From positions 1 through 9,878 of IMG/VR virus record IMGVR_UViG_2703718826_000003: a DNA stretch of 9,878 nucleotides; one strand, given 5' to 3'. Shown here one piece after another: positions 1 to 9,878 of this stretch. The translations under genes and the position numbers were made by a program. Position 1 is the first letter of the stretch. Each line of letters starts with the position of its first letter. The stretch is from a virus (Duplodnaviria > Heunggongvirae > Uroviricota > Caudoviricetes). Under the pieces are notes generated by a model. That model did not search any database, was not told the origin of the DNA, and saw nothing but the letters and a program-made list of their open reading frames with translations.

Positions 1-1
1 G

Positions 2-265
2 GAACTGGCCAGACATCTAGAATTTACTGTCAGCACCGGCGTTAAAGTTTACTTCTGCGATCCTCAGAGTCCTTGGCAGCGGGGAACAAATGAGAACACA
101 AATGGGCTAATTCGGCAGTACTTTCCTAAAAAGACATGTCTTGCCCAATATACTCAACATGAACTAGATCTGGTTGCTGCTCAGCTAAACAACAGACCGA
201 GAAAGACACTGAAGTTCAAAACACCGAAAGAGATAATTGAAAGGGGTGTTGCATTGACAGATTGA
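2..265 (+). CDS. IS30-family transposase, C-terminal fragment (5' end outside window)
   Basis: Frame 2 is open from window start to TGA at 263-265; translation ELARHLEFTVSTGVKVYFCDPQSPWQRGTNENTNGLIRQYFPKK...ERGVALTD matches my recollection of the IS30 transposase C-terminus including the catalytic-region NENTNGL motif. Confidence 0.85.
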   Translation, partial: ELARHLEFTVSTGVKVYFCDPQSPWQRGTNENTNGLIRQYFPKKTCLAQYTQHELDLVAAQLNNRPRKTLKFKTPKEIIERGVALTD

Positions 266-272
266 ATCTACA
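247..272. repeat. IS30 right terminal inverted repeat (26 bp)
   Basis: TGTTGCATTGACAGATTGAATCTACA, resembling the IS30 terminal repeat from memory; directly abuts unrelated phage DNA. Confidence 0.75.
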
Positions 273-299
273 GTGTTGTATTGTATAAATAGAGTACAT

Positions 300-340
300 A
301 AAGCCATCAATATTTCTATCGATGGCTTTATCTTTTTATT
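300..340. terminator. Hairpin plus T-tract, putative intrinsic terminator (clearest on + strand, possibly bidirectional)
   Basis: Perfect 9-bp stem AAAGCCATC(300-308)/GATGGCTTT(321-329) with 12-nt loop, followed on the + strand by ATCTTTTTATT; sits between the IS30 end and the stop of the minus-strand tail fibre assembly gene. The U-tract on the minus-strand transcript is weaker. Confidence 0.45.
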
Positions 341-914
341 GCGGGGCGACTGGCCACTCAACATCCGCTGCTACTGCTGTATCAACACGATTCAACAATA
401 CCCGATATGTCTTCCATGCAGTCAGTAACGATGCCTCTTCCTCCGTCGCAATATCCAAATCTACGGCATCCTGAAGTGGCGCAATATGCTCACTGGCCAT
501 CTGCATCAGGCTGTTTTTTGTTTCTTCCGCCTTCCGGATCCGGAACAGTTTTTCTGCTTCTGCATCTTTCACCCAGGCTGTGCCGTTCCACTTCTGAAAC
601 TCCCCTTCCGGGGATAACCAGGTGACATTTTCCGGTAATGGGCCAAGTTCAGAAATAAATAACGCGTCGCCGGAAGCCACGTCATAGACGGTTTTTCCCC
701 GATGGTCTTCAACGAGATTCCACGATGCCTCATCACTGTTGAAAACGGCCACGAAGCCAGCCGGAATATCTGGCGGGGCAATATCGGTACTGTTTGCAGG
801 CAGACCTGTATGAGGTGGAATGTATGCATCACCTTCACCAATAAACTCATTGGTTCCAGCCAGTAGATTATAAATTTTTATGGTCCGTGATTGTTCACTC
901 ATTCTGAATGTCAT
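336..914 (-). CDS. tfa: Tail fibre assembly protein (Tfa / Mu-P1 U-type chaperone)
   Basis: 192-aa ORF; N-terminus [48 protein letters not shown] is the typical enterobacterial tail fibre assembly signature as I recall it. Start ATG overlaps the upstream tail-fibre stop (TAATG, minus strand 916-912), indicating translational coupling. Confidence 0.9.
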
Positions 915-2530
915 TATGCAAGCCTCACAATATAGTTAAATGCGATGTTTTTTACGGTGTTTTCTTCGTTACCCGTAGCGTTAACGGTGATGGTGTGTCC
1001 GTGGGGACCAATAATGACAGAATGGGCATGAGCACCAATGCCGATAGTGTGGTTATGGGCACCGATATATACATTGTGAGCATGCCCTCCTGCGCTCGAC
1101 GTGGTACCAGTACCTAACGCAGCGTTATAACCGGCTGATACACCATTCCCCGCGCCAGTGTGACCAACAGGTATATTGTGTGAATGAGCTCCTGCGCTAT
1201 TTGTGGTTTTTGTGCCGTAATCAAATGAACTGGTCGTTTTAGTACCGTAATCAAACGACGATGTGGTTTTCGTCCCCAAATCCGTACTGGATGCACTGGC
1301 GCTGTGGGTGTGCGATTTAATGCCGTCCTGTTCCTGAGACAATACTGCACGACCACTGGCGGGCTTGCCCTTAATCGTCCAGCTACGCATATCAGGGATC
1401 ACACCTGACGGATAAGCGGCTGCAAGTTTCGGGTATGCAGATTTGTCAAAAGTCTGCCCCTGCATCAGGGCATAACCAGACGGAACGGTATCTGATGGCC
1501 AAGGGATCGGTGCGCCAACCGGATAAAGTTCATGCGGCGAAATATACAGCGAATAAACAGAACCGTCCGTTAATCCTTCCGGCTTATTAGCAGAATATGC
1601 TGGTGAAGTATGAATCGTTACGCTGGCATTACTGGTATAATCCCATTGAATATTTACACCAGTCGCATAATTTCCAATAGCAACGTAAATATCGTAAGTG
1701 TCACCAGAAGTATTGACCCACGCAAAATTTGTAAACCCTGCCGATGTGCGCTGCCATAAAGCTCCAGTAATCCCCTTCGGATTACCGTTACCTGCACGCA
1801 AAACAAGTTCAGATATACCTGCCTGTTGAGGTGACCCCACGTTAAATCCCGCGCCACCAATCAACGTAATTGAAACAACAGAACTTGCCTGCGGCATGGT
1901 TACAGTTGCCAGCTTGAACCATCCTGCACCACCACTAAAAGACATTGTTGTGGAGTTGATTGTGCCTATAGACCGTGGGTTAAGTTCAATATCTTTAGAA
2001 CCATCAAACGAGACGCCATTGATAGCACATGCTGTCTGCAACTTGGTCGCTGTAGCCGCATTACCAGAGGTGTCCTGATTCCCTTTGGCATTGACGCCGG
2101 GAATTGAATCTTTTGACGTATAGACCTGCGCCCATTCAGACCAGTTGGCAGAATCAGTATCCCGCCGCGAACGGATATGTACGGGCGCATGGGCACCGCT
2201 CGTGCCACTCCAGCCAATGAATAACTCACCTTCGCCAGCAGCGGTGGCACCTTTAAGGTGAAGCACATTGCCATAGGGGGAAGGGTAGCCATTGTTGTAT
2301 GCCTCATACAGCTGAATCCCGGATGTTCCCTGTGCATTCGCCTCCAGGGCCGTTACGCGACCGCGAGATACCAGAGTATTGATATTAATGTCAGCCGAAC
2401 CATCGAACCTGACGCCATTAATGTTTCTGGCTGTTTTTAATTTCGTCGCGGTGTCGGCGTTCCCCGCCAGCGCCCCGGTGATCCCACCGTTGAAAGTCTG
2501 GCGTGCACTCCATGTGTTAGCCGTGCTCAA
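914..2530 (-). CDS. Tail fibre protein, variable C-terminal (receptor-binding) cassette, Sv/Sv'-like; no canonical start, frame open upstream to 2608 through the crossover site
   Basis: 538-aa ORF with two tail-fibre repeat units (GNADTATKL...[15 protein letters not shown] and [29 protein letters not shown]), a His-x-His-rich C-terminus, and a downstream coupled chaperone gene. First conventional start is TTG at 2530; in-frame translation continues upstream across the cix-like site with no stop until TAA at 2609-2611, consistent with a cassette fused to a constant 5' part by inversion. Confidence 0.85.
1202..1276 (-). repeat. In-frame 30-bp tandem coding repeat (2.5 copies) in the tail fibre gene
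   Basis: Encodes [25 protein letters not shown]. Units 1247-1276 and 1217-1246 are identical at protein level but differ at roughly 11 of 30 nucleotides, almost all synonymous. Confidence 0.7.
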
Positions 2531-2560
2531 CAGGGGGATCTTTTCACCGCTTGTGCCAAG

Positions 2561-2586
2561 TTCTCTTAAACCAAGGTTTAGGATTG
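2561..2586. other. cix/gix-type crossover site for the adjacent serine invertase
   Basis: TTCTCTTAAACC-AA-GGTTTAGGATTG: 26-bp imperfect dyad (9 of 12 half-site positions symmetric) around a central AA, with the AAACC..GGTTT core shared by hix/gix/cix/pix sites. It overlaps the invertase stop codon (2578-2580) and the tail fibre frame reads through it. Confidence 0.8.
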
Positions 2587-3138
2587 AAATGATGACGCCG
2601 GAAACTTCTTATAAAGCGTGGAAACAGCCACATCATAGATGATTGCAACCTGCTTACGGGGGATGCCCTTCTCGAGCAATCGCCGCATTTGCTGCCATGT
2701 TTCTTCTTGGTATTTAGGCCGACGCCCACCTATACGACCTTCTGCGCGAGCTGCATCAAGTCCAGCGCGTGTACGTTCAACGATAAGCTCACGTTCCATT
2801 TCTGCCAGCGCCCCCATTACGTGAAAGAAAAAGCGCCCCATTGGTGTACTGGTGTCGATGGAGTCAGTGAGACTCCGGAAGTTAATGCCTCTGTCACGCA
2901 GCTCTTCCACCAGCACAACTAAGTGACGCATGCTGCGCCCAAGACGATCTAACTTCCATACGACTAGGGTGTCACCTCTGGAAAGCATACGGAGAACCTT
3001 TTTTAACCCAGGGCGTTCAGCCTTTTTGCCGCTCGCCTTGTCCTCAAAAATTAGCTTACATCCTGCGCTTTCAAGGGCATTTCGTTGTAAAGCAGTGTTT
3101 TGTTCATTTGTTGATACGCGTACATAGCCAATTAGCAT
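2578..3138 (-). CDS. cin: Serine DNA invertase, Cin/Gin/Pin/Hin family (186 aa)
   Basis: N-terminus [22 protein letters not shown] with catalytic Ser in the RVSTNEQ motif, conserved [15 protein letters not shown] and GRIGGRRPK segments, and a C-terminal helix-turn-helix-like [13 protein letters not shown]. Length 186 aa, same as P1 Cin as I recall. Gene ends within the crossover site. Confidence 0.93.
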
Positions 3139-3265
3139 ATTTTCTGCTCACCATAGTTATTCATAGCAAGCTGCGGATTTTAATTAACAGAAACCAGTGT
3201 GTGTGGAAATCACAAAGTGCATACCGTGCCCCAATGATGTTTTATTGAAAAGCGGGGTTACTTTA
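3139..3265. promoter_or_regulatory. Divergent intergenic control region between the invertase gene and the plus-strand operon (promoters not resolved)
   Basis: 127-bp AT-rich spacer between divergent starts. One weak sigma70-like candidate for the invertase on the minus strand: -35 TTAATT (complement of 3182-3187), 16-bp spacer, -10 TATGAA (complement of 3160-3165). No confident plus-strand promoter identified by eye. Confidence 0.25.
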
Positions 3266-3547
3266 ATGTTTGATTTAACCATATTTTTTATAACCATCCT
3301 TGGAGGCGTGCATTCGTTTCTGAATGGGGTTCGTGAAAAACGTTACGAAGCGTCATGCAGGCAATTGATGGCCGAGTGTATTGCTGCCGTACTTGCAGGC
3401 TTTATAGGCATGTATTTCGCGGAATATAAGGGTATGGATGAAAGTCTTCAGAATTGCGTGACTATTATTTGCAGCATCAATAACAGGCTCATTCTTGAAA
3501 AGTTACAAAGGATTATCGATTCGTACCTCAGTAGCAATGCCTCTTAA
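3266..3547 (+). CDS. Small holin-like membrane protein (two predicted transmembrane helices); possibly LydC-like
   Basis: ORF track gives 3197-3547 from a GTG with no ribosome-binding site. ATG at 3266 is preceded by GGGG 8 nt upstream and gives a 93-aa protein with two hydrophobic segments (LTIFFITILGGVHSFL, IAAVLAGFIGMYFAEY). Start and function uncertain. Confidence 0.5.
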   Translation: MFDLTIFFITILGGVHSFLNGVREKRYEASCRQLMAECIAAVLAGFIGMYFAEYKGMDESLQNCVTIICSINNRLILEKLQRIIDSYLSSNAS

Positions 3548-3587
3548 GCAACAAATGACCGGTTGAGAAGTTACTTTGCATACCATT

Positions 3588-3609
3588 ACCTCCTGACAAC
3601 GTAGGAGGG
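3588..3609 (+). promoter_or_regulatory. Hairpin pairing the Shine-Dalgarno sequence of the downstream holin gene with an upstream anti-SD
   Basis: CCTCCT (3589-3594) and AGGAGG (3603-3608) form a 6-bp stem with an 8-nt loop; AGGAGG is the ribosome-binding site 6 nt upstream of the GTG start at 3615. Confidence 0.4.
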
Positions 3610-3614
3610 AACTT

Positions 3615-3944
3615 GTGCTTGACACACAGGAATTAGCTCCAGTTGCTATTGCGCTCCTGCTTTCAGTAATTGGTGGGATAGGCACGTTCCTGATGGATGT
3701 CCGAGACGGTCGCCAGTCTGGCAATTTGTTGGGATTGGTTACGGAGATCTTTGTTGCAGTGACAGCTGGCGCGGTGGCGTACCTATTGGGGCAACACGAG
3801 GGCTGGGAGTTATCAATTACGTACTTAATGGTAACGATAGCCAGCAATAACGGTCATGAGGTGATTTCAGGGATGAAACGAGTGAATATCGATAGCATTC
3901 TGAATGTTCTTACAAGTTTGGTGAAAAAGGGAGGCGGGAAATGA
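3615..3944 (+). CDS. lydA: Holin (LydA-like), 109 aa
   Basis: GTG start with strong AGGAGG ribosome-binding site; hydrophobic segments LAPVAIALLLSVIGGIGTFL and LLGLVTEIFVAVTAGAVAYLL, charged C-terminal tail KKGGGK; size and position match P1 lydA as I recall it. Stop overlaps the next start (ATGA). Confidence 0.7.
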   Translation: MLDTQELAPVAIALLLSVIGGIGTFLMDVRDGRQSGNLLGLVTEIFVAVTAGAVAYLLGQHEGWELSITYLMVTIASNNGHEVISGMKRVNIDSILNVLTSLVKKGGGK

Positions 3945-4384
3945 TTGGCTGGGGTGTATGCGTTCTTGCGTTAGCCTTAGCCGATCGCTATTTGCTAAAA
4001 CGCAAGGACATCACGCATTTAGAACTTGGTGATGTGGAAATTAAACCGGGTTTCATCCGGGTGCCGTTCAAATACCGGTCTAAATTCCCGTTTTTGCGCG
4101 GCGCAACAGTCAGATATTGGATCCGCGATGTTCAGAAGCCGACGACAGTGATTGAAGGCGAACAACGTTGTTTGACGTCGGCTGAACAGGGCGAAAACAG
4201 TGAATGGTTGTACATACCCACTGAATATATGGGTAAAGGAGAGCGACTGTGGCATTTCAACGTCATGGTTACGCATGGCGACTCGTTCATTAACCCGTTG
4301 TATCGGATTTTCCCTGTTACTCAGCAAATCCGCAGAAGTTACGTAATAAATCTCGCACAGGATGTGTCAGATGACGAAAAATAA
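3941..4384 (+). CDS. lydB: LydB-like protein (putative antiholin / lysis regulator), 147 aa, N-terminal membrane anchor
   Basis: ATG overlaps the holin stop (ATGA at 3941-3944) with an AGGGAGG ribosome-binding site inside the 3' end of the holin gene; N-terminal hydrophobic stretch MIGWGVCVLALALA then a soluble domain. Assignment rests on size and order relative to P1. Confidence 0.55.
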   Translation: MIGWGVCVLALALADRYLLKRKDITHLELGDVEIKPGFIRVPFKYRSKFPFLRGATVRYWIRDVQKPTTVIEGEQRCLTSAEQGENSEWLYIPTEYMGKGERLWHFNVMVTHGDSFINPLYRIFPVTQQIRRSYVINLAQDVSDDEK

Positions 4385-4973
4385 GTATGCAACGGTCGAT
4401 TTTGACCAGGTTAATGAAAAGGGGCTGAAATCCCTTATCGCGGCGATCAATAAAACCGGGGTTACGGTAATTGAGGTTGACTCCAGCAACCGCGCAACAA
4501 CGAAAGATGGCGTTAAAGTTAAAACCGCAAAGCTGGTTCTTAACGACGGACAAATCCTTGCCATACAGGTAAACGATACTGGCGATATATCGTCTGTGAA
4601 ACTGAATGGAAAAGCTATTCCTAACGCTCAGTCGCCGGATATCAAGACGCTTGGTACCGTCATGGGACAGGCGGCCCGCAAAAACTCCGCAAAATTCCAG
4701 AAATCACTGATCGCCAAAGCGAAGCGTGTAGCCAATCCGGTAGACAAGAAACCGGCAGTTAAATCCAACTTTCAGCGCCTGCAAGAAGCAAAACAGCGGA
4801 ATGCTCAGGTGGTTGCCGCTTATAAGTCCGCGCAGAATTCGGTGTCTTTCAATCAACAGCAGATCACTGATTTGCGGGCGAAGCTGGATAAGGAGACGGG
4901 CCGACTCAATAACGAAAAGGCACGGAATGGCGAACTCAAACGTCGTCTTAAGCAACTGAAAGCAGGAAATTAA
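4371..4973 (+). CDS. Hdf/DarA-family protein (short paralogue), about 200 aa, C-terminal coiled coil
   Basis: ATG at 4371 has AGGA 8 nt upstream (the ORF-track start at 4362 has none). Contains the KNSAKFQ motif followed by a predicted coiled coil; the same motif and architecture recur in the next protein. Confidence 0.6.
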   Translation: MTKNKYATVDFDQVNEKGLKSLIAAINKTGVTVIEVDSSNRATTKDGVKVKTAKLVLNDGQILAIQVNDTGDISSVKLNGKAIPNAQSPDIKTLGTVMGQAARKNSAKFQKSLIAKAKRVANPVDKKPAVKSNFQRLQEAKQRNAQVVAAYKSAQNSVSFNQQQITDLRAKLDKETGRLNNEKARNGELKRRLKQLKAGN

Positions 4974-4974
4974 C

Positions 4975-6006
4975 ATGGAACAGTTCAATATCAATAAAGG
5001 GGTGACGATCAAGCCTGGGCTTGACGTGCTTCCCCCGCCAGTGACTGATGATGAATATCGCGCATTAATGGCCGGTGAGGACCGCTATCTGATGACGGAA
5101 TCCAACACCCTGGAGGAAATCGAGGCTACGTTCTTCTATGACACGCCGATCCACTGGTGTGCTACGGATTTACTGGAGGCGATTAGTTCTACTCGTTTGC
5201 AGTTACACCGGACCATGCAGGCATTTGTCCGGGCATTGAACCAGAAGCTGAATGGCACCGGAATCTCTGCGGGGAGTGATAAAACGGGGGATGTGGCCCA
5301 GAGCGGCGCGCGCGCGATCGGCGGTGCTGAAATTGGCCGGGCACGGAACGTTAACGGGCTGCCGGTCCTGCCAGCCATTATTCCGCTCAGTGATGGTCAG
5401 ACTATCAGCATTCTGTTTCATAGCCCGACAGCGGAAAACCGGATCACCAATAGCGATACGCTGGTTGCTTTCCAGTTCTTACTGAATAAAAAAGACGTTA
5501 CTCACACCGTTGCTCCGATGAGTGGACGTGATATGACGCTGGCGCAGGTCACCATGAAACTTGCCAACCTTGCAGAGAAAAACTCGGCAAAATTCCAGCG
5601 TGCGCAGAAGAAGAAAAAAGCCCTGGTTGATGAAATAACCCAACTACAGGCTGACAGTGACCAGAAAGAGGATGCCATGAGCGACCTCGCGGATCAGGTG
5701 GCAGCGGTAGAAGGGCAGAAGGTAGATCTGGAGCAGAAAATTAACGCTGTTGCATCGGAAGCGGATTCTCTTTATGAAGAGAATGAGCGTTTGCAGACGG
5801 AGATTGATCAGCTCAATCGCACTGGTGGGCGCGAAACCATTGCTCCTGCGGGGATGACTGGTGGACACTCTCGCGCGATGACGGATCGCCTTGCAAGTAT
5901 CAAAAATCGTATGCATATGAACGGGGAAGTGACGCTCAGTAATGGTGCATCAATGAAGCAATTCATTGAGGACGGTGAAGGGTATATCCAGTTAACTGGG
6001 ATGTGA
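4975..6006 (+). CDS. DarA-like protein (antirestriction / head-morphogenesis family), 343 aa
   Basis: ATG 4975 with AGGA 7 nt upstream, 1 nt after the previous stop. Contains KNSAKFQ followed by a long heptad-like coiled coil (LVDEITQLQADSDQKEDAMSDLADQVAAVEGQKVDLEQKINAV...). Naming by analogy to the P1 darA operon from memory. Confidence 0.6.
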   Translation: MEQFNINKGVTIKPGLDVLPPPVTDDEYRALMAGEDRYLMTESNTLEEIEATFFYDTPIHWCATDLLEAISSTRLQLHRTMQAFVRALNQKLNGTGISAGSDKTGDVAQSGARAIGGAEIGRARNVNGLPVLPAIIPLSDGQTISILFHSPTAENRITNSDTLVAFQFLLNKKDVTHTVAPMSGRDMTLAQVTMKLANLAEKNSAKFQRAQKKKKALVDEITQLQADSDQKEDAMSDLADQVAAVEGQKVDLEQKINAVASEADSLYEENERLQTEIDQLNRTGGRETIAPAGMTGGHSRAMTDRLASIKNRMHMNGEVTLSNGASMKQFIEDGEGYIQLTGM

Positions 6007-7391
6007 AGACGCTGGATAAACAGGTTGATGTAACTCCCGATGAAGATGCTGTTATGCAGAAAATCAGTGGTGGCGTCTCCATCGCCGGGATTAACGACAT
6101 CATTTCCTGTGACGATTTCTACCGTTTCCAGCAGCGCGGCATGATCAAAATCACTGACTCATACGGCGTTCAGACTACAGAGTCAGGCTATAGCATTGAT
6201 TTTGTTGGTACCTATACGGACCCACTGAAGCATGCGGTTTACCCGGATCGCCGTGACGGCGCGCTGAAGTCGTCAATTGCAAAATGGGTGCTTGGTATGA
6301 TGTCGGAAGGGAATAACCGCCAGATCCGTTCGGCAGAAACATTCCTGGTTGAACTGTTTGGCTCCAATTATGGCGATGTAATCGCGTCATACGGAGATAC
6401 GCTATCCCCTGAAGCAATTCAGGAGAAAATAGCGGATGCGATCGCCAGAATGCCGGAAAAAACAAGCCAGGGGGCTACTCGTAACGGGGATTCTGAACTT
6501 GAAGTCACCAATGCCATTTTCGGTACCAATGAGTTCCGGGCGTCAGATTATGAGATCACCACAGCACAGTTTGGCACCATTGGCATTTACAGCAATAAAG
6601 CCGAGATCAAGCAGGCAATGGACGCAGCAAGCGCGCGCATCGCAGCAGAACGGGAAGCCAATCTGAATCATGCAGTCGCCGCACTGACTCAATCGTGGGT
6701 AACAGCAATCAGGGAGGCCGCCACCACAGGGAAAATCACACCTGCAATTGCGGATGTCGTAAACGACGGCTCTAAATTTATGGATGCCTATCAAATGGAT
6801 GCGGTGCAGTTGCCATCAGCCTATGGCCAACTCAGCTATCGCATGACCTACAACCTGGTATCAATGTTTACTGACCTTGCCATCCTTGGGCTGGTGGACC
6901 TTAACGAGGTTACGCCGGAATTACTCAGCATGCGCAAGAATCATGTTGAGATATTGCAGAGAATTAACACGGTTCTTGCCGGGCGCACCGATGAAGAGAA
7001 ACAGGCCGACGCTGATCGGATAAACCTGGCCCTAGGCAACATCACGGAGGAAGAAATTGCCGCCAGAAACGAGAAACAAGAAGAGTTATCATCAATACAG
7101 GGTGATGCCACCAGCATAGCTCAGTCTCTTGGGCTGAATTATCGCGTATCCACCGCCGACCTGAAGATGATGTACGCACCAAAATTCGCCGCTGGCGAGG
7201 TATTTGGGCTTCAGGAAGCCTCCGGCATGAAAGGGGTTCTTTTCCGTGCGAAAGACGCAATCAAGGCGAAATTCGGCGCTCGCTGGTTGCCAGCGAAGGC
7301 GAAGAACAGCGACTTCCCAGGTAACTGGTGGATTATCGAGACAAAACACAACGTGGCGGACGTTCTGGCCGTCATCCAACAATACGCATAA
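6003..7391 (+). CDS. Hypothetical protein of the Dar-like operon, 462 aa (possibly the C-terminal portion or partner of DarA)
   Basis: Long ORF with GTG start overlapping the upstream stop (ATGTGA at 6001-6006); coding-like composition; no motif I can assign. Confidence 0.6.
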   Translation: MKTLDKQVDVTPDEDAVMQKISGGVSIAGINDIISCDDFYRFQQRGMIKITDSYGVQTTESGYSIDFVGTYTDPLKHAVYPDRRDGALKSSIAKWVLGMMSEGNNRQIRSAETFLVELFGSNYGDVIASYGDTLSPEAIQEKIADAIARMPEKTSQGATRNGDSELEVTNAIFGTNEFRASDYEITTAQFGTIGIYSNKAEIKQAMDAASARIAAEREANLNHAVAALTQSWVTAIREAATTGKITPAIADVVNDGSKFMDAYQMDAVQLPSAYGQLSYRMTYNLVSMFTDLAILGLVDLNEVTPELLSMRKNHVEILQRINTVLAGRTDEEKQADADRINLALGNITEEEIAARNEKQEELSSIQGDATSIAQSLGLNYRVSTADLKMMYAPKFAAGEVFGLQEASGMKGVLFRAKDAIKAKFGARWLPAKAKNSDFPGNWWIIETKHNVADVLAVIQQYA

Positions 7392-7396
7392 CAGGA

Positions 7397-7416
7397 GCGC
7401 CCGGTTCGCCGGGCGT
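7397..7416 (+). other. GC-rich hairpin with UUCG tetraloop in the intergenic spacer
   Basis: GCGCCCGG-TTCG-CCGGGCGT, 7-8 bp GC stem closing a UUCG tetraloop, between the stop at 7389-7391 and the ATG at 7425; not followed by a U-tract. Confidence 0.5.
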
Positions 7417-7424
7417 CGCATAAT

Positions 7425-7865
7425 ATGGCCACATTATCTGATACAATAAAACCGAATAAAACATATCTTGAGGCGGTGCTGCGTACGGCGTTGTTAGGAA
7501 AGACAGAAGACGAATACGTTGATTTCTTCCTGTCAGGGCTACGCGGGCGATTACTGAAAAATCCCCGCCTGTACCGCAGCTATGGTCCATACTGGCCGGA
7601 AATTAAAAAATTATTACTGGAGCGCGGTTATGGTAATTTCGGTCGTCTCGTTGACCGTGACGTTCGCAAAATTTACCGTTATGACCGTCCGGCGCTGACG
7701 CTCATAGCCGCGACGCTCTACAGCCAGGAGCGTTTTGATAATGGTCAGATATACTCAGCCTGGCATTTACTGCCAGTGCCTGAAGAGGTTGACGACCAGG
7801 ACTATGAGTTTGAGTCTTACGATTTGGAAGTTGAAGCCTTGGCACAGGCTGGAGAGAAAACTTGA
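7425..7865 (+). CDS. Hypothetical protein, 146 aa, strongly acidic C-terminal tail
   Basis: ATG start after the hairpin; C-terminus PVPEEVDDQDYEFESYDLEVEALAQAGE; stop overlaps the next start (TTGA). Confidence 0.55.
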   Translation: MATLSDTIKPNKTYLEAVLRTALLGKTEDEYVDFFLSGLRGRLLKNPRLYRSYGPYWPEIKKLLLERGYGNFGRLVDRDVRKIYRYDRPALTLIAATLYSQERFDNGQIYSAWHLLPVPEEVDDQDYEFESYDLEVEALAQAGEKT

Positions 7866-8110
7866 AGAAGCGATACTACACAGTAAAGCATGGGACGCTA
7901 CGAGCATTGCAAGAGTTTGCTGATAAGCATAACGTTGAGGTGCGCAGGGAAGGGGGAAGTAAAGCTCTGCGCATGTACCGTCCTGACGGAAAATGGCGGA
8001 CGGTCGTCGATTTCAAAACTAACAGTGTTCCCCAGGGCGTCCGCGACCGGGCATTCGAAGAATGGGAGCAGATCATCATAGATAACGCATTGCTTCTGAA
8101 CGCTGATTAA
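7862..8110 (+). CDS. Hypothetical small basic protein, 82 aa, translationally coupled to the upstream gene
   Basis: TTG start with GGAGAG 7 nt upstream, overlapping the upstream stop (cTTGA); K/R-rich N-terminal half. Confidence 0.45.
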   Translation: MKKRYYTVKHGTLRALQEFADKHNVEVRREGGSKALRMYRPDGKWRTVVDFKTNSVPQGVRDRAFEEWEQIIIDNALLLNAD

Positions 8111-8120
8111 TAATCATTTA

Positions 8121-8141
8121 AAGCCCATATGATATGGGCTT
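8121..8141. repeat. Perfect 10-bp-arm palindrome (AAGCCCATAT g ATATGGGCTT)
   Basis: Lies 11 bp after the 82-aa gene stop and 22 bp before the AT-rich gene; no U-tract on either side, so an operator, RNA-processing or stability hairpin is as likely as a terminator. Confidence 0.45.
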
Positions 8142-8162
8142 AAACAACAGGATCGATATACA

Positions 8163-9203
8163 GTGTTAGTTAAATATATAGGCGAGAGTTATATGGAAAA
8201 ACCTTGGCCGGGCATGCACATTAGAACATCTTGTCTGGAGGATGGTTTCTTTAGAGCAACGCAACCAAAGTATCTTAATGATCCGTCGAGTGAGTCGCGA
8301 CTTCTTCCATTTTTTAATAAATTTTCACCAGCCGATTACGCATGGGCTAGAAATGAATTTAAGAAAATGCAACGAGATCCATCTTATGTCCCATCTATAC
8401 AAGAGTTAGAGTATTATTTAAAACCTTGCGGGAAACGATACGGAGAGGATTTTCCACACTTGTTAATCAATGAAGGTTTTACCTCAATGGATTCATATGA
8501 TGAATCTAAACTCCAAGAAATAGTAACGTACCTTAACGATTATTTAGTAGAAGCCGTAAGCTGTCATCTTGGTGTATTCTCTCTATCAAAAAGTGATTGC
8601 AATCTACACATGTGGACTCATTATGCATCGATAGGAAAGGGGTTTGCTGTAGTTTTCGATGAAACACACGATTTTTTCAAAATATATAGGCCGTGTGATG
8701 TTAGTTATAATCCAGAAGATAGAGCATCTGTAACCTATTATAAAGGCGCTGTGCGATTTAATGGCTATCCTGCGCCATCGAGGAATATAGATATAAAGAA
8801 TAAAGATAATACATTGCATGGGATCTTAAATCGAGATTCAGTTCGCGAGCTTTTTATTAATAGGCTCCTTTATACAAAAGGTGAAGAGTGGCTTCCTGAA
8901 AATGAAAGTAGAATTATTTTTCCTTTAGCTGATTGCGAGAGAAAGATAGGAAGTATTGTCTCTCCATCGATTGATGATTGCCTATTAAATGAGTATCCTG
9001 ATGTTTTTCATGACTATCATGAAATTAACTTAAAGAAAATTCCTTTTTCTGCATTCAAGCAAATTACCTTAGGGTATAACATGACTGAAAAAGATAAAAA
9101 TATAATTTTAGATAAAGTTAGTTCGAATAAAGAATTGTCTCACGTCAACGTATTATATTCAAAACTTGATATATACGGAAAGGTTGTGGTTAAGCCCATG
9201 TAA
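8163..9203 (+). CDS. AT-rich cargo gene, 346-aa protein with DUF2971-like motifs; function unknown
   Basis: GC content visibly lower than flanking phage genes. Motifs LVKYIG...FRATQPKYLNDPSSE and SCHLGVFSLS...NLHMWTHYASIGKGFAVVFDE resemble the DUF2971 family as I recall it (N-terminal LYKY, NDP-E, MW-HYA). Start is GTG 8163 or ATG 8193. Confidence 0.6.
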   Translation: MLVKYIGESYMEKPWPGMHIRTSCLEDGFFRATQPKYLNDPSSESRLLPFFNKFSPADYAWARNEFKKMQRDPSYVPSIQELEYYLKPCGKRYGEDFPHLLINEGFTSMDSYDESKLQEIVTYLNDYLVEAVSCHLGVFSLSKSDCNLHMWTHYASIGKGFAVVFDETHDFFKIYRPCDVSYNPEDRASVTYYKGAVRFNGYPAPSRNIDIKNKDNTLHGILNRDSVRELFINRLLYTKGEEWLPENESRIIFPLADCERKIGSIVSPSIDDCLLNEYPDVFHDYHEINLKKIPFSAFKQITLGYNMTEKDKNIILDKVSSNKELSHVNVLYSKLDIYGKVVVKPM

Positions 9204-9287
9204 TAATACGCTTATGTCTACACTTCATGATAAATACCTTCCTTAACTTAGGAAGGTTAGTTGTAGGTTTACGCAGAAAGTAACAAA

Positions 9288-9320
9288 TAACCTTCGTAGG
9301 TTATAGAATATTATTCTTTC
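9288..9320 (+). terminator. Weak terminator candidate after the AT-rich gene
   Basis: Stem TAACCT / AGGTTA with TCGT loop (9288-9303) followed by the T-rich TAGAATATTATTCTTTCC; a second small hairpin ACCTTCC/GGAAGGT lies at 9236-9257. Confidence 0.3.
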
Positions 9321-9347
9321 CGGTGAGTATTCCTTGAGGAACTCTAG

Positions 9348-9363
9348 GGAAGGTGCGAATAAG
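9348..9363. repeat. IS5 terminal inverted repeat (16 bp)
   Basis: GGAAGGTGCGAATAAG at the junction with the AT-rich flank. Confidence 0.8.
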
Positions 9364-9493
9364 TGGGGAAATTCTTCTCGGCTGACTCAGTCATTTCATT
9401 TCTTCATGTTTGAGCCGATTTTTTCTCCCGTAAATGCCTTGAATCAGCCTATTTAGACCGTTTCTTCGCCATTTAAGGCGTTATCCCCAGTTT

Positions 9494-9878
<385 letters not shown>

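Follow-up and report, generated by a model that had tools for sequence, protein, structure and literature searches.

What is the function of a single AT-rich gene that interrupts the conserved gene order of a P1-type phage-plasmid? This question is raised by a DNA stretch of 9,878 nucleotides (the window; positions 1 to 9,878 of the Caudoviricetes record IMGVR_UViG_2703718826_000003 in IMG/VR), in which an open reading frame (ORF) on the plus strand (8163-9203) encodes a 346-amino-acid (aa) protein of the DUF2971 family. In an initial annotation, made from the letters of the sequence, the gene was taken for horizontally acquired cargo with a candidate undescribed defence or exclusion function. 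Here, we show that it is the one ORF of a 1.19-kb cassette (8111-9300) filling the interval between the phage genes lxc and mat, where related phage-plasmids carry defence systems. We lean towards the view that the cassette is a lysogen-protecting single-gene abortive-infection (Abi) module with an NAD+-using effector resembling ADP-ribosyltransferases (ARTs). This reading is preferred because of the other occupants of the interval, the genomic contexts of homologues, the similarity to the PDC-S31 defence models and a validated member of the protein family.

The borders of the cassette are sharp. In the intact relatives MH422554 and MH445380 and in the S. Typhi plasmid ph681355, the DUF2971 gene is flanked by lxc on one side and by the convergent mat on the other. 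Alignment of the DNA past the lxc stop in six P1-like elements showed that similarity extends through the stop codon and is lost at the very next base. In the window, lxc (7862-8110, plus strand, 82 aa) is the conserved left anchor, the region from the darB 3' end through ulx and lxc being 97.7% identical to P1. The right anchor is the remainder of mat on the minus strand (9301-9347), recognised by alignment with two intact mat genes and reduced by an IS5 element to its last 15 codons plus the stop (RVPQGILTGKNNIL*). Since divergence starts at the lxc stop and the mat stop maps to 9301-9303, the exchangeable unit, read on the plus strand as palindrome, DUF2971 gene and hairpin, is 8111-9300 and occupies the lxc|mat interval exactly. 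The proposed horizontal acquisition of a single-gene cargo agrees with these edges, placed precisely at the two stop codons.

Which other genes are found in this interval? P1 itself carries there res and mod, the genes of the EcoP1I type III restriction-modification (R-M) system. Salmonella phage SJ46 carries a gene for a 373-aa RelA/SpoT family protein (PADLOC model PDC-S33, E = 7e-87). CapRel-SJ46 is a fused toxin-antitoxin from phage SJ46 that is activated by a phage capsid protein (PMC9712102); the RelA/SpoT gene in the slot appears to be CapRel-SJ46, for which the paper gives no coordinates. We further surveyed a spread sample of ten PLSDB plasmids carrying ulx-lxc, so that 13 P1-like elements were inspected overall. 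Three of the ten plasmids hold a gene for a 434-aa, ThsA-like SIR2 protein (PADLOC PDC-S25, E = 2e-24) and two have an empty slot; the remaining five contain, one each, the DUF2971 gene, a CapRel-type gene, a YaaC-family protein with a 169-aa partner, an EAL-domain protein with a 170-aa ORF, and a kilA/icd copy. Cargo occurs in either orientation, as seen for the R-M genes, the SJ46 RelA/SpoT gene and the SIR2 gene. The YaaC-family pair and the EAL protein with its 170-aa ORF gave no match in the PADLOC search; they could be further defence candidates, and the slot can be mined for such uncharacterised occupants.

Phage defence hotspots have been defined as small loci with high cargo turnover, bounded on both sides by a conserved phage gene (Rousset et al. 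2022, PMC9122126). We looked for a locus of approximately 1-5 kb with high-turnover cargo, two flanking conserved phage genes and known defence systems inside, and all of these features are present in the lxc|mat interval of the 13 elements. In P1-like elements, defence genes are exchanged in the compact slot between lxc and mat. The initial annotation had argued from an antirestriction neighbourhood and had placed the gene at the end of a Dar-like operon. Both points have to be reworded: the upstream genes are the remnant of a deletion from darA into darB, the gene sits in the lxc|mat slot, and what matters is the presence of defence genes at this place in related phage-plasmids. Two further cargo positions on P1-like plasmids were observed in passing. 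In p2_050613 (fetched locus 7250-7999) a gene with a DUF4145 domain lies between mat and ref, which suggests a second variable slot adjoining the first. In p234cef_scFOS (fetched locus 533-1888) a gene annotated as 'anti-phage deoxyguanosine triphosphatase' adjoins ssb, another defence cargo position.

Homologues with approximately 50% identity are found in other cargo slots or islands. In Salmonella and Enterobacter kobei the gene lies between gpV (baseplate) and gpS (tail) of P2-like prophages and runs counter to the late genes. In Serratia it is the last gene of a P2/HP1-like prophage, three genes away from a PADLOC PDC-S64 gene, and in Raoultella its neighbours are symE and P4-like ogr/delta-psu genes, a GajB-like helicase and a retron reverse transcriptase being encoded no more than 8 kb away. 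One Klebsiella homologue is located in a chromosomal islet beside a HEC-04/AbiL/AriA-like ATPase, another in an AlpA-bearing island, and the Vibrio homologue resides on a conjugative plasmid beside a PIN-domain protein. A survey of homologues for defence or mobile loci had been proposed with the initial annotation; all contexts turned out to be mobile elements or islands, several of them beside defence-type genes. No conserved partner or antitoxin was detected: each context has neighbours of its own, and BLASTP found the small ORFs at the flanks unrelated among five contexts. The cassette itself consists of one ORF. Because no neighbour is common to the contexts and the flanking ORFs are unrelated, we conclude that the DUF2971 gene moves alone and presumably works alone. 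The P2-like gpV-gpS interval, with the homologue at 10001-11050 and 8001-9047 of the fetched loci from two genera, looks like another moron or hotspot position. H-NS-like genes flank a Klebsiella homologue, and a sensor of the PANGU/nucleoid-protein type was considered for this reason; the preprint concerned deals with YejK-like proteins and other effectors, and the idea was dropped as irrelevant.

The protein matches the Pfam DUF2971 hidden Markov model (PF11185) with 28.4 bits against a gathering cut-off of 22 (E = 4.3e-6), its residues 150-251 covering the whole 89-position model, and the same match is found in all 51 aligned homologues. The family membership suspected from the motifs is therefore confirmed. 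An exhaustive profile search yielded 8,900 cluster representatives at E <= 1e-3; since only 39 of these reach E <= 1e-30, the approximately 350-aa group is, on sequence grounds, a small distinct subfamily within the very large DUF2971 family. PHROG 1762, a family of phage and prophage proteins with unassigned function, matches over the full length (E = 6e-71). A search of NCBIfam gave no match to the protein. Four PADLOC PDC-S31 models match with E = 4.7e-16 to 1.5e-6 at partial coverage (approximately 55-60%), with matched spans such as 92-237 of 259 and 105-168 of 273 model positions. PDC-S31 is a single-gene candidate drawn from defence neighbourhoods, for which the literature searched holds no validation; the cassette protein is a relative of the groups modelled there, not a clear member.

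Conservation was scored over 40 sequences, down to 25% identity. Invariant residues are K4, D40, Y154, G160, Y182, K239, E248, R250 and G304, and at least 90% conservation is seen for R31, Q34, P35, N39, E44, G137, W151, W243 and E246. The three motifs pointed out in the initial annotation are real conserved blocks down to the same identity, namely LVKY (K4), LNDxxxE (N39/D40/E44) and MWxHYAxxGxG (W151/Y154/G160). DUF2971 has been placed in the ART superfamily, with a strictly conserved motif II tyrosine and an ExE motif (PMC12522546), and Y154 and E246/E248 agree with these published motifs. Y154, a candidate motif II tyrosine by conservation, lies in the MWxHYA block (codons W151-T-H-Y154, 8613-8624, plus strand). 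The conserved codons E246-N-E248-S-R250 (8898-8912, plus strand) are a candidate for the catalytic motif III (ExE) and lie where a strand (248-254) of the predicted structure begins. Checked against the catalytic triads of ARTs (H-Y-E or R-S-E, motif III reading ExE or QxE), the protein has invariant Y154 and E248 and an ambiguous motif I, either K4 in strand 1 or R31.

The predicted structure consists of an ART-like core (residues 1-55 and 136 to approximately 280), a family-specific helical insert (56-135) and a small C-terminal alpha/beta domain (285-346). The structural match scores of the model are 6.7 for Mycobacterium tuberculosis DarT, 6.6 for yeast Tpt1 (tRNA 2'-phosphotransferase), 6.5 for Thermus DarT, 5.9 each for a Salmonella NAD-binding effector (7dn9) and T. 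africanus DarTG, and 5.4 for E. coli DarT1. These scores are modest. Foldseek of the model against the PDB gave nothing significant, and profile searches of the homologue alignments A1 and A3 against PDB sequences gave chance-level matches alone. For these reasons the ART fold of the DUF2971 protein is graded as likely and not as proven. The structure search that had been suggested at the outset gave resemblance to DarT and Tpt1 and no significant Foldseek match. The subfamily is approximately 40-50 residues longer than its relatives of about 300 aa, and much of the excess lies in the helical insert. The C-terminal domain is common to these shorter relatives and showed no match to anything known.

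How does the protein compare with characterised systems? Its best structural matches are DarT structures (7yk3, 7omv, 8baq). DarTG acts in phage defence by ADP-ribosylation, DarT being a DNA thymidine/guanosine ADP-ribosyltransferase, and sequence-profile similarity of DUF2971 to DarT/AbiGi has been reported (PMC12522546). The Pfam family of DarT (DUF4433) is not matched by any of the 51 members, even at E <= 10, and no DarG-type macrodomain is present in the flanking proteins, the neighbours being lxc and mat. The cassette protein is not a DarTG member; it may work in a DarT-like manner all the same.

The closest functional precedent within the family is Aristaios, a 316-aa DUF2971 protein with a predicted ART fold, encoded on the Lactococcus plasmid pUCCL641, whose single gene gives phage resistance (Grafakou et al. 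2024, PMC11381338). It belongs to the Abi-like class and disturbs phage transcription and protein production (PMC13064643, PMC12967558); it was omitted from an escape-mutant screen, so that there are no escape mutants of it. Aristaios is set beside the cassette protein through the common Pfam family, and sequence identity is probably low. It comes from another phylum and another type of element, and is 30 aa shorter than the cassette protein. When PLSDB was searched by tblastn (E <= 1), Lactococcus appeared neither in the ten most frequent genera nor in the matches listed. The statement of the initial annotation that DUF2971 has no established function does not hold, given the publication of Aristaios as a single-gene Abi-like system (PMC11381338, PMC13064643) and the assignment to the ART superfamily (PMC12522546). 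What remains of the proposed function is its core: the preferred interpretation is a role in abortive infection or exclusion, and at the family level this function is not undescribed. By analogy, the cassette gene is a new candidate member of an already known kind of defence, most likely a stand-alone anti-phage 'suicide switch'.

A second comparison concerns position and logic. EcoP1I and, apparently, CapRel-SJ46 sit at this lxc|mat position within one family of phage-plasmids, and this cargo guards the lysogen. CapRel is a tRNA pyrophosphokinase and EcoP1I a type III R-M system, so that proteins and chemistry are unrelated to DUF2971. CapRel is a single polypeptide, autoinhibited until a phage protein triggers it; for the DUF2971 cargo we propose likeness to this arrangement, not homology.

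For the lysogen-protecting module we infer enzymatic activity, target, trigger and phenotype as follows. In the lysogen, the gene would be weakly expressed, probably from transcripts that read through from the two lxc promoters. These are the P1-annotated sigma-70 promoters P2lxc (7611-7639) and P1lxc (7789-7817), both on the plus strand and identical to P1 NC_005856. Read-through is suggested because the two promoters are conserved exactly, the hairpin behind lxc has no U-tract, and a promoter search found no promoter-like site in the 52-nt spacer 5' of the gene. A candidate promoter of its own at 8085-8113, the equivalent of P1 P2mod, differs at 7 of 29 positions and was rejected as unconvincing. 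The enzyme would stay inactive until another phage infects, and candidates for autoinhibition and sensing are the helical insert (56-135) and the C-terminal domain, because there is no partner gene. Once activated, it would ADP-ribosylate a component of gene expression in an NAD+-dependent reaction. Judged by the fold, it would most likely modify DNA or RNA, in line with DarT and Tpt1, or else a protein of transcription or translation. By analogy with Aristaios, phage gene expression would halt and the infection abort. A narrower version of this mechanism is conceivable, and we hold it only tentatively: a stand-alone nucleic-acid ART without antitoxin, kept in check by its own insert and/or C-terminal domain, would be switched on directly by a phage protein as in CapRel, mark RNA or DNA ends or bases unlike DarT, and so stop phage gene expression.

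Several points weigh against the lysogen-protecting module. The protective phenotype of the approximately 350-aa subfamily is argued by analogy. Kinship with Aristaios means a common Pfam family, and this family is itself very large, as its 8,900 representatives at E <= 1e-3 illustrate. The PDC-S31 matches span only approximately 55-60% of the models. A canonical motif I histidine or arginine is not clearly identifiable, K4 and R31 being candidates for it, so catalysis is a prediction. Finally, the gene in the window sits on a degraded P1 derivative, where selection for phage-related functions is uncertain. The competing explanations fit the slot and context evidence less well than a defence module does.

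The protein could serve phage offence or counter-defence, as an ART that alters components of the host or of competitors (cf. T4 Alt, ModA and ModB) or that works with darB and ulx. The gene lies on the same strand directly 3' of darB-ulx-lxc, 52 nt past lxc, and an own promoter is not obvious; this suits such a role, as do the ART-like fold and the full-length match to a PHROG family of phage and prophage proteins. We nevertheless regard it as unlikely. The same slot carries host-protective systems in either orientation, the R-M genes, the SJ46 RelA/SpoT gene and the SIR2 gene. Homologues are not confined to phages, since a conjugative plasmid and chromosomal islets also carry them; those in P2-like prophages oppose the strand of the late genes in the manner of a moron; and the sole tested family member is a defence system.

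The distribution of the cassette bears on the remaining explanations. At an identity of at least 95% it is present in 90 of 699 PLSDB plasmids bearing ulx-lxc (approximately 13%), in copies that are 98-99.9% identical, and the DUF2971 gene is intact in 88 of these 90 plasmids (coverage at least 80%). Allele comparisons revealed 8 synonymous versus 2-4 non-synonymous differences. Of 5,426 complete E. coli genomes, 63 contain the cassette, on plasmids at 64 of 65 places, and its hosts include commensal, animal and wastewater E. coli. Among 5.8 billion proteins searched, one cluster of 99% identity with 839 member sequences was found. All other matches have at most 53% identity and are full-length proteins of approximately 350 aa from Klebsiella, Serratia, Vibrio, Shewanella, Salmonella and others.

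A passenger gene, or a gene with a function outside genetic conflict such as RNA 2'-phosphate or RNA-end metabolism of the Tpt1/KptA type, is rather improbable in view of this pattern. The structural match to yeast Tpt1 might be cited in its favour; there is no detectable sequence similarity between Tpt1/KptA and the cassette protein, and the conserved residues differ. Unlike Tpt1/KptA, the gene is surrounded by mobile elements instead of housekeeping genes, and no housekeeping context occurred among the homologue loci examined. Its distribution is patchy and bound to mobile elements, with jumps to approximately 50% identity between hosts. Low GC content and cassette structure, an intact ORF and mostly synonymous variation speak against a mere passenger, too.

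Alternatively, the gene might be a selfish toxin or plasmid-stabilisation gene of the addiction type with no anti-phage role. Its toxin-type fold related to DarT, its almost exclusive occurrence on plasmids in E. coli and its persistence on a defective P1 derivative no longer capable of particle formation would be in line with this. We consider it distinctly improbable: neither a candidate antitoxin nor a macrodomain gene was found in the vicinity, no neighbour is conserved across the contexts, the cassette is one ORF, and approximately 87% of P1-like plasmids do without it. A secreted virulence effector ART acting on eukaryotic cells, as proposed for some Legionella DUF2971 proteins, is hardly credible, since the hosts are commensal, animal and wastewater E. 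coli with phage-plasmids, no secretion-system genes lie nearby and the neighbours are phage and defence-type genes.

Clinical and farm Enterobacteriaceae commonly harbour phage-plasmids of the P1 type, in many cases with resistance genes; approximately one in eight of the P1-type phage-plasmids in PLSDB carries the cassette. If the module blocks other phages, it bears on phage therapy, phage typing and the competition of mobile elements in E. coli, Salmonella and Shigella. Aristaios is the only tested member of the very large DUF2971 family, and a member carried by E. coli, for which the model is confident and the candidate catalytic residues are clear, offers a convenient system for the study of targets and triggers. 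Should the protein be a stand-alone nucleic-acid ART, this would give the mechanism of the DUF2971/Aristaios class, with its 8,900 representatives, and a new nucleic-acid ADP-ribosylation chemistry in bacterial immunity.

A distant, shorter form of the gene was observed elsewhere. Phage SSU5 (NC_018843 32677-33273) carries a DUF2971 gene with approximately 26% identity over about 200 matched aa. A distant gene of this SSU5 type is also present on approximately 180 plasmids of 105-120 kb from Klebsiella, Enterobacter, E. coli, Salmonella and Citrobacter. Because of their size, their predicted mobility and the SSU5 match, these plasmids seem to be SSU5-like phage-plasmids, with the short DUF2971 gene as a common feature.

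Concerning the gene itself, the ORF at 8163-9203 (plus strand), supported by Pfam, alignment and model, opens with GTG, the first possible start past the in-frame stop. A Shine-Dalgarno-like AGGA (8149-8152, plus strand), read off the sequence, lies 10 nt 5' of it. PGAP places the start at ATG 8193 (336 aa), which would drop the conserved MLVKY strand. GTG 8163 is preferred as the true start, because it retains the invariant K4 and residues 2-6, the first strand of the model. In the 'phage P1' GenBank records MH422554 and MH445380, the DUF2971 gene is without annotation and 'Mat' is given at the match. The low GC content on which the initial annotation was built is evident: 35.1% for the ORF (28% at third codon positions) and 35.0% for the whole cassette, compared with 49.3% for 3197-8110 and 51% for the IS5 part.

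The palindrome upstream and the hairpin downstream of the gene, likewise noted before, are both present. The palindrome (8118-8144, no strand assigned), found by inverted-repeat search and folding, has arms at 8118-8130 and 8132-8144 that match at 12 of 13 positions around a perfect 21-nt core (8121-8141), and it folds into a 9-bp stem with a 3-nt loop. Its 71-nt context has a z of -2.2 relative to shuffled sequences, only 2 of 200 of which fold better. It is kept in all four other P1-type copies fetched and in none of the other homologue loci, and for this reason belongs to the cassette, not to the backbone. Other variants of the lxc/mat slot have different hairpins at this position. The palindrome is possibly a weak attenuator behind lxc or a protein-binding site. 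Downstream, a hairpin with an 8-bp stem (9236-9257, no strand assigned) was found by the same two methods. It lies between the DUF2971 gene and mat, which converge on it, resembles a terminator on the minus strand and is contained in an imperfect 26-nt inverted repeat.

The element around the cassette is damaged. Positions 2298-5996 of the window correspond to the P1 invertible C segment, cin, lydC/A/B, hdf and the first 1,021 nt of darA, and positions 5993-8110 to the final 1.4 kb of darB followed by ulx and lxc. Alignment to the P1 map shows that the truncated darA and darB blocks share 4 bp at their junction (5993-5996, no strand), a microhomology marking a deletion of 16.9 kb (P1 coordinates 11868-28801). 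With it ddrA, ddrB, hxr, IS1, ssb, the lysozyme gene, pro (head processing) and the portal gene are gone, and within 4975-7391 an N-terminal stump of DarA (343-aa ORF) and a C-terminal stump of DarB (462-aa ORF) are left. Because the portal, head-processing, lysozyme and further genes are deleted, the element is, as read from its gene content, a defective P1 derivative incapable of particle formation. The E. coli IncY plasmid NZ_LT883139 has the same layout from lydB through the DUF2971 gene. The turning of P1-like phage-plasmids into plain plasmids by gene loss has been described (PMC10879196).

The IS5 copy is partial and runs beyond the window (9348-9878, no strand assigned). It is 98.5% identical to the P1 IS5 (7652-8182), with the terminal repeat GGAAGGTGCGAATAAG visible. 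It had been thought to have inserted right after the DUF2971 gene; in fact it lies not in spacer DNA but at a CTAG target inside mat, 15 codons ahead of the stop, and interrupts the end of this gene. The P1 c1-100 reference genome also has an IS5 in this neighbourhood, there inside mod. At the other end of the window, a tail-fibre ORF on the minus strand (914-2530, 538 aa) encodes a tandem peptide repeat of two copies and a partial third (GTKTT), and histidine-rich motifs of the H-x-H type near its C-terminus.

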